Shown here: positions 3,664 to 50,939 of the stretch, one piece after another
How positions within the stretch are numbered: position 1 is the first letter of the stretch
How the letters are laid out: the number at the start of each line of letters is the position of its first letter
Source: Octopus vulgaris
Lineage: Eukaryota
Reading direction: 5' to 3'
Assembly (NCBI GenBank): GCA_951406725.2
Contig: OX597828.1
Location: 14,632,001 to 14,696,000 of the forward strand
DNA: 64,000 bases
Notes under the pieces: generated by a model
The model's database searches: none
What the model was told of the DNA's origin: nothing
What the model saw: the letters and a program-made list of their open reading frames with translations, nothing else
Translations under genes and position numbers: made by a program

Positions 3664-3912
3664 AAATTGAAACTGATTTGAAAATCGGAAATCCACCTGA
3701 AGATTGTCATTCAAGACATGAAACAATTGTAGTGGCGGTTTTTTTTTACTTTTTATTAAAATTTTATGTATTGATTAAGTCTTTCCTTGTTTGTTTTGCA
3801 AAATAGTGGTTTTGACTCTAATTAATATTATATAATATTTTACTATAAAATTGGATTTAATCCTAAATCTGATTTTTTCCCTGTAAATTTGGATTTATTC
3901 CCTAATATTTAT
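3664..3912 (+). mobile_element. Non-autonomous PLE terminal-repeat-like island embedded in (TA)n
   Basis: Flanked by (TA)n on both sides; near-identical to the copies at 16040-16645; contains a hammerhead motif. Confidence 0.75.
3693..3735 (+). ncRNA. Minimal type I hammerhead ribozyme
   Basis: CCAC-CTGAAGA-t-TGTC(attcaa)GACA-t-GAAA-C-AATT-G-TA-GTGG. Stem I is CCAC/GTGG, stem III is the palindrome ACAATTGT, cleavage triplet GUA. Confidence 0.8.
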
Positions 3913-5879
3913 TATATATATATATATATATATATATATATATATATATATATATATATATATATATATATATATATATATATATATATATACCTTCGAA
4001 ACGTAGAGTAGATGAAACCATAGCGACTGAAGAAGGGGTTTTTTATTTGTGTTAATTGTCCTGTGCTCTTTTTTTTTTTTTGTTTAAAAAAATGTCCAGT
4101 TCCTTGGGTTTGTGTCTATGTTTTCGTTTCTCATTGTGTTCGACGTCTTTTTGGTGTCCTGTACTCATATATGCGTGTATATGTACATGTAGAGGAAGGT
4201 ACGTACATATATGTTTATATATATGCATATGTTTTATTTATTAATATATATATATATATATATATATATATATATATATATATGGCACGCAGACGTCGCA
4301 CATTAGCTTATATGGAGTTAAGAGAATTATTTAACTACGTCACAGATAAGAATTCAGGGGGAAACCAATCTGCTATTCTCATACATATTGGTCAAGTGTC
4401 ACGCCTTTAGGCGGGCCTTTTGAATGACAAAGAAACGGGTGACGTTTACATGTTTGTATGTTTGTTACTGTAGACACTCCTTGATATTGTGTGAACTGAG
4501 GCCGCTTGATATCAAATTCCAAGCACTGACGCAAATCAGTAGCGCCAGTTCTTTGAAGCAACTAGACTTGATATGTATACAAACAGATTGGCTACTTGTT
4601 CTCTGGGATTGGTCAAGTGATGTAGACAGCACTGATAAGACCCCAATAAGGGCCGAAAATCGATTAAGGTCGTTCATTATATTTTTTCACACTGCAAAGA
4701 AACAGGAAAACTATTGACACCTTTGTCTGTCTTATTACATTGGTTTGTGTTCATGCGTGCCTGCGTGTATGTGGGGGTGGATGGTTGTGTGTGTGTGTGT
4801 GTGTGTGTGTGTCTGTGCTGACCTGGCGTGAATAATGTATAACGAACCTATGTGTCCTCTTCATGATAAGAACTTGTCAAAAAAGGCAGCCAACAATGAG
4901 TTTAACAAACGTCAGCCAAGTCCACTGTTCCCGCCACTCTTTATTCTTCCCGTGCCTTTCCCATTCGTTTCTTTTTTTTTTCTTTATTGCTTCGATTTCT
5001 TTGTCTCTGTTGTTGTTTTTTTCGTCTCGCTTCGATTTAGTCATGCAAAGCAAGCACGGATATGTATGTGTATGCTTGCGTGTGTGTGTGTGTGTGTGTG
5101 TGTGTGTGTGTGTGTGTGTGTGTGTGTGTGTGTGTGTGTGTGCGCGTGTGTGTGTGTGTGTGTGTGTGTGTATGTGCGCGCGCGCACACGTGTATCCGCA
5201 CAAGTAAATATCGCAAGACTAGAAAATACCACACACTACCTCACTGCTCGTAATCATATTCATGCATACATAGCATACACACACGCAGACACACACTCAC
5301 ACACACATGCAGATACGTACACGCACACACACATACACACAAACACATAATACACACACTCATACACATACTTTCATACACGCACACATACAGACATACA
5401 TATGACAGAATACATTCACACATAGATACATACATGAATACTCACGCACACACACATACATACATACATACATACATACATACATACATATACATACATA
5501 CATACATACACACATGGATACATACATACATACACACATGGATATACACACATACACATAACTAATTAAGGCACAGCTAATTAACAAATTGCAATTACAA
5601 GCCATTAATGGAGCTGCAAAAGTATGTAACACATTCCAGTAGGTTAGTCTCTTAAAAGTGTATCTACACACTCGTAGACAAAACATGTGAGTATATATAT
5701 ATATATATATATATATATATATATATATATATATATATATATATATATATATATATATATATATATATAAGGGGGTCAAGCACGCGAACACTCACAAACA
5801 TAGACATCTGTTTGCACACACGCGCACACACACGCACACATATATATACGTGTATGTATGTGTGTGTATATATATGTAT

Positions 5880-6205
5880 GTTGAGACCCCCTTCGGTCAT
5901 CAATGACCATGGTATTGCACCTAGGAAGTTACCCTCCCAGGCACAAGTCCGGGCAAGGTTGTTTATGGAAAACCAGCAGTCGCCCACGCATACCGGCCAC
6001 CTCTCTCCACGCCACTGATGTTACCCAAGGGAAAGGCAAAGGGGCCGATACAGCTTGGCACCAGTGGCGTCTCAACTAATTTCTACAGCTGAGTGAACTG
6101 GATCAACGTGAAATAAAATGTCGTGCTCAAGAACACAACATGCAGCCCGGTCCGGGATTCGAACTCACAACCACTGAGCTCTAACCACTGAGCCATGCGC
6201 CTTCA
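5880..6205 (-). mobile_element. tRNA-derived SINE (family C-related head, different tail)
   Basis: Reverse complement GGCGCATGGCTCAGTGGTTAGAG...GAGTTCGAATCCC...TTGTGTTCTTGAGCA. Confidence 0.75.
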
Positions 6206-6869
6206 CTATATATATGTATATATGTATGTATATAATACATACACACACACACACACACACACACACACATATAATATATATATATATATATATATATATA
6301 TTATACATAATTGTGTGCTCGTGTTTGTGCTTGTCCCCCACCGCCATTTACAATAGGTGTCGAGTATTTTACGTGCTCGTAACTTAACGGGTTCCCTAAA
6401 GACATCGATAAAATAAGTGCTGCGATCGATTTGTTCGACTTCAATCCAACAAGATGGTACTCCAGCATGACCGAATTCCAATGACTGAAACAAGTAAAAG
6501 ATTAAAAAGTGAGAACGTACGCACACACAAATATTATATATATATTTTGAATTGTTAAAGAGATTCAAAGTCAAACCGGTGTCGTCATTGCTGTTCACTG
6601 GCTTTCAATGCGCCTGTATATATATATATATATATATATATATATATATATATGGTTGTATTTTGGGATAGTATTTTTTTTTTGTCAAATAAACACATGC
6701 ACTATAGTATGTGTTTATTCGGCAAAAAAAAAAGAAAAATGACCATCTCGAAATACAACAATATCTGTTTCAACACACGACTTCACATCAGGAATCTTGC
6801 AGCACAAATTCATAAACGTATATATATATATATATATATATATATATATATATATATATATATATATAT

Positions 6870-7040
6870 AACGGGAAGCTTTATGAAAATAGACAAAAGA
6901 CGAAGGCAGGTTTACGGAAATAAACAAAAGACGAAGGCAGGTGGAATACAAACAAACAATTGTATTAGTATGGCGCTCAGGAAATATAAATAAAACAAGT
7001 CTTTAACGTTTCGAGCCTACGCTCTTCAACAGAAAGATAC
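6870..7040 (-). mobile_element. PLE-derived island in (TA)n/(CA)n
   Basis: Homologous to 49661-49860; microsatellite-flanked; contains a hammerhead-like motif. Confidence 0.7.
7000..7037 (-). ncRNA. Minimal hammerhead variant (core CUGUUGA)
   Basis: Minus strand TCTTT-CTGTTGA-A-GAGC(gtag)GCTC-GAAAC-GTT-AAAGA. Stems I and II pair perfectly; stem III is reduced to the palindrome AACGTT. Confidence 0.65.
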
Positions 7041-48718: not shown

Positions 48719-49228
48719 TGAAGCATTAATGTGTTAACGTATTAATGTATATTGGTTGATACAAAACTTCAAATAAGGCAATCAAAACAAGTAATTTTGA
48801 TATCTTTGTAAAAGCGTGAGCATTACCGCTTCTAATTGTCTTGAAATAACTTTAGGCTTATTAATGTGTATGCACGGAATATATTCATTGCGAAGGTAAG
48901 TAAGGGAGATAAGTAAACAAAACTATAAAACTATGTTCGCGAATTATCGCCACTGGTGATTTACAAGAAAAATAATTCCACTGGAAAATATTTCGAATCT
49001 TCACTGAATATCTGAACATGAATGAAGAATTCAGAAAACAACTTGTATTGCCTTGGGATACGGATATGGTAGCTATTTATAGCAAGCATATGTTATTATG
49101 TTCGCTTTTTTTTTTATTACGTATGATTTTATATATATATATATATATATATATATATATATATATATATATATATATATATATATATATATATATATAT
49201 ATATATATATATATATATATATATCATA

Positions 49229-49640
49229 GGCGCAGGAGTGGCTGTGTGGTAGGTAGCTTGTTTACCAACCACATTGTTCGGGTTCAGTCCCACTGCGTGG
49301 CACCTTGGGCAAGTGTCTTCTACTATAGCCTCGGGTCGACCAAAGCCTTGTGAGTGGATTTGGTAGGCGGAAACTGAAAGAAGCCCGTCGTATATATGTA
49401 TATATATATATATGCGTGTATGTGTTTGTGTCTGTGTTTGTCCTCCTAGCATTGCTTGACAACCGATGCTGGTGTGTTTATGTCCCCGTTACTTAGCGGT
49501 TCGGCAAAAGAGACCGATAGAATAAGTACTGGGCTTACAAAAGAAAAAGACCCGGGGTCGAGTTGCTCGATTAAAGGCGGTGCTCCAGCATGGCCGCAGT
49601 CAAATGACTGAAACAAGTAAAAGAATAAAAGAAAGAATAA
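49229..49640 (+). mobile_element. SINE family B, full length
   Basis: Starts GGCGCAGGAGTGGCTGTGTGG. Further copies at ~36470-37130, 45490-45630(-), 46030-46260(-), 55140-55525(-), 55750-56150(-), 57620-57865(-), 58700-59205(-), 61200-61510(-) and 62265-62395(-). Confidence 0.9.
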
Positions 49641-49760
49641 AAAGAATATATATATATATATAACGGGAAGGTTTACGAAAATAAACAAAAGATGGCAGGT
49701 GGAGTACAAACAAACAAACAAATGTATTAGTATGGCGCTCAGGAATAGAAATAGAACAAG

Positions 49761-49798
49761 TCTTTTACGTTTCGAGTCTACGCTCTTCGACAGAAAGA
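49761..49798 (-). ncRNA. Minimal hammerhead variant (core CUGUCGA)
   Basis: Minus strand TCTTT-CTGTCGA-A-GAG(cgtaga)CTC-GAAAC-GTA-AAAGA. Confidence 0.6.
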
Positions 49799-50939
49799 TA
49801 CACAGAGAAAAATCAAGGAGAGGGAAAAATGCGTGTAAGAGCTAACGGTCCATCATGGCATATATATTGTAAACGTCCTATTCAGCAATTGTGTGTGTGT
49901 GTGTGTGTGTGTGTGTGTGTGTGTGTGTGTGTGTGTGTGTGTGTGTGTGTGTGTGTGTGTGTGTCTGTGTGTGTGTATTTTTATTGTTGTTAACAAACCA
50001 AATTCTTCCTTTGTACATCTGCAAGCAGGTCACTGACACTTATTCAGGTGTATTTTTGTAGTTCAACACAATATTTCAAATCAAATTTCTTGCCAAACAA
50101 GCAAACCATGTAATTTATTGTACGTTTGCCAGAAAATACCGGAGAAAGCAATGACAGTACAAAGGAGAAAAAAAAAAAAAGATTCTTTAGTATTCCATTA
50201 CTGGAAATCAAGGGAAGCTACGCAATCACTAAGTGGAGTACCTCTAGAGTTGTCCCCCATATTTACCAAAACTCAGACTTATTAATATCAACTATTATAA
50301 TTAATCTTTTATCCACGTCGTATAAGTATTATTTATTAAAATATTTTTCACCCACAGTATTAAATATGAGAATCATATTCTAACTATTGTTTTATCAAAT
50401 GGAGTACATACTTGTATATTTTCCCTCAATTACGATAATAATTATTTATGCTTTCTCATTTTACATACTTGTACGTATAATAGAATGAAATATGAACATG
50501 CAGCAAGGAATACAAGTATATGCATTATATAGATTAAAGAAGAAAATGTACTCTATTTAGGTTTGTCAGACTAGTGTCCTCATCTTGATTGTTGCTTTCT
50601 CTACGTTAGAGGACAACAGGCCGAATAAGGTAAACTGGACGCTCCCAACCAGGCAGAAATGTATGTAGCGTTCTCGTTGGCCGCTGGCGTGACGCATTTC
50701 GCCTTTTCCCAATACATATTGTTTTTAAACACAGAACGACCATATGGTATATTATCTCCGGACGAATACCGCCGTAAATATGCCTATCATGATGCATTTA
50801 CATTAAGTATAATACATAACTGGCTATTTTAATCAAATACTCTTGTTGTGTATGTGAGAGAGAGTAAGCACTCATACACACACACACACACACGCACACA
50901 CTCAGATATATAATTATATATATTATACATATACATATA

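Follow-up and report, generated by a model that had tools for sequence, protein, structure and literature searches.

(TA)n-flanked hammerhead islands of the Octopus vulgaris genome as putative short copies of Penelope-like elements, including intron-less copies of one family

We analysed a stretch of 64,000 nucleotides (nt) from Octopus vulgaris (hereafter the window; contig C15, positions 14632001-14696000, in a searched genome of 2.80 Gb and 227 contigs) that holds short islands with minimal hammerhead ribozymes (HHRs). Reading of the sequence found the window dense in (TA)n and other simple repeats, and simple repeats also dominated a repeat search of it. All seven islands of the original prediction (at 3664, 6870/49661, 7437, 8864, 16040, 45063 and 46445) do sit between (TA)n tracts, as claimed. 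That they represent sequence-unrelated families was true only in part: several are distinct, but the islands at 3664 and 16040 are one family (97%), families A and D have a common 3' part (74% over 148 nt), and families C and F have stem III in common. It is quite probable, in our judgement, that the islands are short copies of the pseudo-long terminal repeat (pLTR) plus tail of several families of Penelope-like element (PLE). The islands have fixed 3' ends beside (TA)n and form head-to-head foldbacks whose second arm lacks the tail; in family A, an intron has been removed exactly at GT and AG, and copies have a hard 5' stop at one place.

Family A is represented in the window by four arms, all of which bear the exact exon join. 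The island at 3665..3912 (plus strand), a spliced pLTR with the tail of a Hydra-type PLE, has its join between 3683 and 3684, its core CTGAAGA at 3697-3703, a predicted cut between 3731 and 3732, an inner fixed end at about 3828 and its outer end at 3912. On the minus strand lie a spliced arm with tail at 16045..16291 (core at 16259) and, 180 nt upstream, one without tail at 16310..16469 (core at 16439), which together make the window's sole same-strand pair. The fourth arm, 16487..16646 (plus strand), is also spliced and without tail, stands head-to-head with 16310-16469 and has one mismatch in stem I. Longer copies elsewhere in the genome (L144, L152, L167) run from exon 1 (ACTTCATAA...GACTTGAAA) through a GTATG donor and 1.0-1.15 kb of intron to a TTTTAG acceptor before exon 2, and in a further locus, L262, the intron measures 1.8 kb. 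L262 also contains the parent element, with an 839-amino-acid (aa) stop-to-stop frame between two A ribozymes, in a 6.0-kb tandem unit that includes 2.5 kb of open reading frame (ORF). The frame has the motifs KWK (residue 44), DKT, YRDD, CxCX5C and YIGST, and these motifs and the (TA)n preference appear to match the Hydra clade as outlined in passages of Craig et al. 2021 (PMC8557442). An Asn-rich low-complexity stretch within the ORF (L262:1841-2100) may be compared with the N-rich inserts described for rotifer Penelopes in parts of PMC3846280.

We fetched 30 A loci using only the part 3' of the cut site, one being the window copy and two having been seen before. The exon join was present in 17 and the intron acceptor in nine, one locus was cut in exon 2 and three inside the ribozyme, and none of the 30 started at the predicted cut site. 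All 17 spliced copies end in (TA)n and none continues into the ORF. Exact patterns found 488 joined arms and 371 acceptor (intron-bearing) arms genome-wide, and the reversed control patterns matched nowhere. The first 100 joined arms comprise 67 that joined after GACTT, 27 after GACTTGAAA or GATTTGAAA (GAAA), five after GACTTGTAA (GTAA) and one after GTAT. From these classes we predicted a template of the form GACTT-GTAA-GTATG, in which two donors would lie 4 nt from each other. The predicted two-donor allele does occur in the genome: donor arms numbered 196, and the first 100 of them included 57 with GTAA and 43 with GAAA. On contigs C1-C4, where the lists of joined arms and of arms with upstream context are both complete, three of 98 joined arms (at two loci) extend at least 6 nt beyond ACTTCATAA, and 88 of the 91 arms with context upstream of ACTTCATAA are not joined. 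The 98 joined arms include 19 head-to-head pairs.

Loss of the missing 1-1.8 kb by DNA deletion or by a template jump of the reverse transcriptase (RT), rather than by splicing, would suit elements that often switch templates, as their foldbacks and internal joins attest. We consider such a loss extremely improbable given the exact GT and AG ends, the two donors 4 nt apart, the lack of microhomology in the sequence at the A joins, and an identical join from introns of different length. It is also conceivable, though quite improbable, that the intron-less form arose once and then spread as a master copy like that of a short interspersed element (SINE), in which case it would say little on the parent's template. 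The dominance of a single join type fits such an origin, and an internal promoter is known for the D. virilis Penelope from part of PMC2377424; three join types, in contrast, correspond to two genomic donor alleles, and subfamily letters (ATCGGAAATC versus ATTGGAAGTC, GATTT versus GACTT) recur in both joined and intron-bearing copies, so splicing appears to have been captured repeatedly. Even one origin requires a spliced sense RNA as template. Spliced sense RNA is thus, from the sequence, the likely template for the A islands.

Several observations weigh against this interpretation of the islands or against its breadth. None of the 98 joined arms on C1-C4 is followed by exon 1 at 3-8 kb downstream; full-length copies that are spliced at the 5' end, which the simplest model predicts, were thus not seen. 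The transcription start of family A would lie where copies stop, the position from which we placed it, and the three extended arms mentioned above do pass it. In the sequences compared, splicing was seen in family A only: an AG after a T-rich run precedes the ribozyme in C, D and F, and no shared joined form occurred in 21, 14 and 14 distinct upstream sequences of these families, respectively. Genome searches return best matches, biasing the loci towards young, query-like copies, and the family C query included the foldback itself. No Pfam family was found for the A parent at E<=0.01, so its placement rests on motifs, and no ORF link was found for family F. Spliced forms of families B and E were also sought in upstream sequences, and none was found.

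In some long A copies exon 1 is present twice, with a spacing of about 1.2 kb; the first of the two bears the GTAA donor allele and the second bears GAAA (C1:121363106/121364315, C1:145051107/145052315, C3:132914554/132915781 and others). We rejected an untemplated G before ACTTCATAA as a copy of the cap, as an inverted arm can supply the G in three of four loci. Contigs from sequencing runs (three guessed to be RNA, one unlabelled) were compared with L262:1-4400, and the join was seen in X1 and X15; the join is, however, present in genomic DNA as well, and a contig does not reveal where a transcript begins or stops, so they were not used as evidence for splicing. One X8 contig leaves the element at L262:73, the predicted cut, and enters unrelated letters, but as a single contig it was not taken as evidence. 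Summed contig depth over the HHR and tail greatly exceeded that over the ORF, a figure that is not a copy number.

The remaining islands belong to five further families. Family B is present as a truncated 3' end of a Neptune-type PLE at 6872..7038 (minus strand; core CTGTTGA, with an A6U change, at 7032-7026; predicted cut after 7005), with a relative at 49664..49804 (minus strand; core CTGTCGA at 49793). Copies of B form a ladder of many different 5' ends, and in three of 30 loci a GIY-YIG endonuclease frame with a Neptune-type linker (seen in L082) lies upstream. Another piece, at 46318-46406, is the 3' end of a B-related family with a CCGACGA core, cut right after the ribozyme. Family D forms a foldback at 8866..9420, with core at 9107-9101 and predicted cut after 8998 on the minus arm, which holds a complete HHR with a long helix II; the plus arm begins inside helix II and bears the tail. 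A Hydra-type endonuclease frame lies upstream of D in sense orientation in six of 30 loci, with CxCX5C in L234. Both B and D are ordinary 5'-truncated 3' ends. The family C foldback at 7437..7650 has a plus-arm core CCGACGA (U4C) at 7584 and a minus-arm core CCGACGG at 7573, its minus-arm tail reaching 7437; in one long C copy with a canonical core (L009), the tail leads into an N-terminal frame that shares 37% identity with the beginning of the A parent, a link seen at one locus. Families A-D thus connect to PLE coding frames in longer copies, which bears out the PLE origin that had been proposed. Family F is a foldback at 46446..46668, with a plus-arm core CCGAAGA (U4C) at 46583-46589, a predicted cut after 46633 and a minus arm consisting of the 3' half with tail. 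Family E is present at 45088..45384 (plus strand) as the 3' part of a unit of about 499 nt (core CTGACGA at 45089-45095; predicted cut after 45136), and this copy has no native 5' strand of stem I, which other E copies have.

First-look searches gave genome candidates for A (1212), B (904), C (1945), D (1716), E (2792) and F (604), numbers that are neither copy numbers nor complete. For family B, all 40 scored matches were 100% identical. We left out chance rows (three in the Neptune table, a few in C, E and F) and discarded one tabulation pattern for D, which was too loose and returned mostly chance rows. Partial tandems, inverted 5'-truncated arms and a tail at one end were all seen, as in endonuclease-bearing (EN+) PLEs.

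The islands had also been proposed to be non-autonomous and retrozyme-like, which suits family E but not A-D. E is a closed, ORF-less unit of about 499 nt that is joined head-to-tail at 11 or more of 30 loci, and it likely borrows the same PLE machinery. We regard it as unlikely that all islands are self-standing units of this kind, cut as dimers, closed into circles and copied by a PLE protein. Beyond the closed ORF-less unit, head-to-tail joins and canonical core of E, such a view could draw on the two spliced A arms in tandem 180 nt apart at 16045-16469, and retrozymes are stated to derive from pLTRs in part of a preprint (bioRxiv 10.64898/2026.07.22.740005). It does not sit well with the passage of A-D into PLE coding frames, the ladder of 5' ends in B, the mostly head-to-head pairs (19 among the 98 joined A arms) or the absence of starts at the cut site in all 30 A copies. 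Non-LTR retrozymes, as described in portions of PMC7229834 and of the same preprint, resemble family E in their ORF-less tandem unit and type I HHR; E measures 499 nt against 150-450 nt in those accounts, and has partial tandems with a PLE-type tail and inversions. Families A-D are unlike them in that longer copies lead into PLE frames.

A strict descriptor (type I hammerhead, one core change allowed, palindromic stem III) found six sites in the window, against none in any of 10 shuffles made block by block on dinucleotides, and a looser one found seven sites against 0-1 in 12 shuffles. The four stem III sequences quoted with the original prediction are all present. The motifs are real, but not every island is a plain type I hammerhead: in the window only A and E match CTGANGA, and several folds had to be corrected. 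The proposed D ribozyme, a small fold beside ACGCGCGT, was wrong, as the true core lies about 90 nt upstream behind the long helix II; this core is canonically CTGAAGA, about 90 nt upstream of GAAA, reads CCGAAGA in the window copy, and is part of a complete ribozyme in the window only on the minus arm (9107-8998). In an Rfam scan, no hammerhead family was among the best 150 of 406 matches, which were mostly microsatellite-driven miRNA entries. At the descriptor sites, helix I of 4-5 bp, which is left open at its end, and helix II of 3-5 bp surround the cores. The canonical core CUGANGA...GAAA...UH is present in A, D (genome copies) and E, and one fixed core change marks each of the others: A6U in B (CTGTNGA), and U4C in C, F (CCGANGA) and the Neptune element described below. 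At the base of helix II, family A has U.U or U-A, window copies having U.U; U.U at this place is known from the axolotl HHR_Amex2 in part of PMC7229834. In F, the CTTCGG of the helix II loop (window 46583-46616) is complementary to CCGAAG of the core and could lock the ribozyme into an off fold. No fewer than eight additional HHR types whose helix III is palindromic (CCATGG, CTCGAG, CAGCTG, CACGTG, CATATG), several with a long helix II, were found in flanking sequence at L076, L084, L088, L107, L116, L183, L207, L238, L251 and L264.

The changed cores of B, C, F and the window Neptune element could be catalytically dead relics or protein-binding folds, a reading we find doubtful. According to part of PMC3088659, activity in vitro is reduced by U4C and was low after a change at A6, and U4C is known from a viroid; no A copies begin at the cut site, and longer C copies keep the canonical core. 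On the other side, the remaining core and the stems are kept, and U4C occurs in a family whose 150 of 150 scored matches are identical in protein. In an alignment of 40 distinct B-like sequences, 90.9% of cells were paired; because the pattern used to select the rows already imposes helices II and III, the alignment is informative for helix I and the core only. There, position 7 takes any of the four letters beside a fixed U6 (CTGTNGA in 21 of the 40), which does not suit a dead core, and neither does a C-G/G-C swap at one stem I pair, a single event that separates two subfamilies.

Luense et al. in 2017 reportedly found that small HHR variants of PLEs cleave as dimers, and are said to have examined many core variants, so that U4C and A6U may be in print there. 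Computed duplex energies for helix III range from -4 to -16 kcal/mol, and as a monomer helix III does not fold except in E (-1.0); its palindrome reads TCGGTCCGA in one case and TTGGTCCAA in a relative. Arms that stand head-to-head have their cores on opposite strands and are not dimer substrates. Most islands, lone or head-to-head, are predicted not to cleave, the pair at 16045-16469 being the one same-strand pair of the window. The hammerheads would then be passengers of the pLTR.

PLE hammerheads as presented in parts of PMC4209133 are minimal motifs in pLTRs that occur alone by the thousand or in pairs on opposite strands, have an intron end at helix I and cleave weakly as dimers. The octopus motifs agree with those published in their short palindromic helix III, an extra base that follows A9 in several families, a large number of families in one genome, mostly lone motifs ascribed to truncated PLEs, opposite-strand pairs 100-700 bp apart and, as in D. 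virilis, an intron end beside helix I. They differ from these published accounts in family-wide U4C and A6U, a helix II of about 70 nt in D, and replacement of G10.1-C11.1 by U.U, U-A or A-U in A, C, E and the Neptune element; spliced genomic copies, found here, are unreported in those accounts. Families A, D and probably C share with the Hydra clade, as characterised in passages of PMC8557442, a C-terminal GIY-YIG, DKT, CxCX5C, an HHR in the pLTR, (TA)n insertion, tandem and inverted copies and a tail at one end. Family A departs from that description in its unit of 5.7-6.0 kb (generally <3 kb published), KWK in place of RWK, a tail of about 84 nt rather than 30-40 nt, a 5' untranslated region (UTR) intron of 1-1.8 kb and hundreds of spliced short copies. 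We made the Hydra and Neptune assignments by motifs.

At the end of the window lies a 5'-truncated Neptune-type PLE (62397..64000, plus strand) comprising the end of the RT, a GIY-YIG domain carried by the frame 62397-63548, a stop at 63548 and a 3' UTR. A protein search returned 150 of 150 scored matches identical in protein (the best 150 of 17,857 candidates), many in 775-aa frames and with a tandem spacing of 4271 nt. The motifs DKG, GxKF and a CX2-5CxxC linker before GIY-YIG occur in the window element and in the parent, L263. Its hammerhead, about 50 nt past the window end, was found by way of the ORF and not by motif search, and has a CCGAAGA core (U4C), U.U at the base of helix II and the palindrome A-GTAC-T. 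The element (window, L031, L263) appears very young, with CCAAT- and TATA-like boxes before the hammerhead. A first frame of 454 aa, for which Pfam returned no family, overlaps the 775-aa RT frame by 90 nt around T TTT TTA, likely pointing to a -1 frameshift; a frameshifted ORF1 is drawn in the Fig. 1 legend of PMC8557442.

Other features of the window include further (TA)n-flanked pieces with copies elsewhere (7160-7268, 3993-4243, 6654-6818 and 24428-24748); in 3993-4243, GAAACGTA precedes CTGAAGA, an order that would suit a type II or junction arrangement. Foldback pieces in which no hammerhead was detected lie at 37364-37623 (with a relative in L046), 53306-53672, 17249-17484, 8565-8794 and 3491-3606. 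A 1.6-kb interstitial (TTAGGG)n-like array spans 41027-42594, and at L159 an A copy is joined to such repeats. SINE-like dispersed repeats are plentiful and often stand beside (TA)n (1-300, 19190-19390, 45492-46250, 47060-47770, 49226-49635 and many more); no hammerhead was found in those of the window.

We evaluated the density of these motifs beyond the window in 18 hand-picked 10-kb stretches at round coordinates on 16 contigs. The window contains 11 arms with a core in 64 kb, or about one per 6 kb, close to the predicted one per 5 kb, which does not extend to the sample: seven arms homologous to the eight motifs tested were found there, about one per 26 kb. Strict sites in the sample numbered five (0-1 in five shuffles), one of which resembles chance. 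Extrapolation gives 1.1 x 10^5 HHR-like arms genome-wide for the tested families only (Poisson 95% 0.4-2.2 x 10^5), which supports the large ribozyme-motif load that had been expected. Recently active Penelope families are listed in an octopus repeat annotation of 2026, in whose main text a term search matched no ribozyme, hammerhead or intron (PMC13282606). Targeting of the (TA)n microsatellite, also predicted, is borne out: (TA)4 lies no further than 30 nt from the end at 56 of 60 loci of A, 25 of 30 of B, 30 of 30 of C, 17 of 28 of D, 23 of 28 of E and 12 of 22 of F (counted at the inner end), compared to 4.9% at random places; these are best-hit loci where the end motif was found, and include window copies and a few repeats.

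We postulate that the element protein would nick (TA)n DNA and begin reverse transcription at two fixed internal sites, lying just downstream of the predicted and probably uncleaved hammerhead. In family A, its template would be its own spliced mRNA, copied from an initiation point within the 5' UTR as far as the position at which transcription began. A start at the first pLTR of the spliced mRNA would yield a dead-end island of about 250 nt bounded by the cap, and a start at the second pLTR of a read-through RNA from a tandem array would give rise to long copies, in which the downstream intron is mostly kept. The intron is perhaps retained because a first exon of 24-28 nt would be defined only next to the cap, in keeping with general knowledge of splicing. 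Tentatively, and with slightly less than even confidence, we propose that intron retention depends on position, that the load of solo HHRs is largely a pLTR by-product, and that U4C and A6U mark tuned-down ribozymes that keep the template whole.

A pLTR holding the start, a short first exon and an intron is described for PLEs in parts of PMC2377424 and PMC8557442, the latter calling the significance of intron retention unknown. An antisense template was proposed to account for it and the question left open (portions of PMC3846280). Judged from those portions and from PMC2377424, family A resembles the D. virilis Penelope in its order of start in the pLTR, short exon, intron, HHR and ORF, in long copies that keep the intron and in head-to-head inversions. 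An antisense template cannot yield spliced copies, so the spliced A copies, which have the same foldback geometry, oppose the antisense idea, though for long copies such a template is not strictly excluded. The Poseidon_Ac protein, in passages of Frangieh et al. 2024 (PMC11167929), starts reverse transcription in vitro at two internal sites that bound the tail and prefers AT-rich DNA; insertion proceeds without HHR cleavage, uncleaved RNA is the main substrate, and those passages report no reads ending at the HHR site. The octopus elements are similar in their AT-rich targets and in two probable RT start sites bounding the tail. They would differ from that description in having start sites before the ATG and in that the genome appears to record the first-pLTR by-product of a spliced mRNA.

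Minimal HHRs from PLEs in (TA)n, and their foldbacks, are known and already in print. The novel finding is that family A includes exact intron-less copies of a PLE that, in its long copies, retains a GT-AG intron of 1-1.8 kb; our literature search, which drew on sources outside the older non-open papers, the repeat databases and supplementary material, turned up no description of genomic PLE copies in spliced form. The genome also holds very young families with natural U4C and A6U cores. The hundreds of spliced, start-bounded A copies would be a genomic record of spliced sense RNA being copied, and they make the question of PLE intron retention testable. If the tentative reading given above, in which retention depends on position, is true, a by-product of spliced mRNA would account for a large share of the minimal hammerheads that stand alone in animal genomes.

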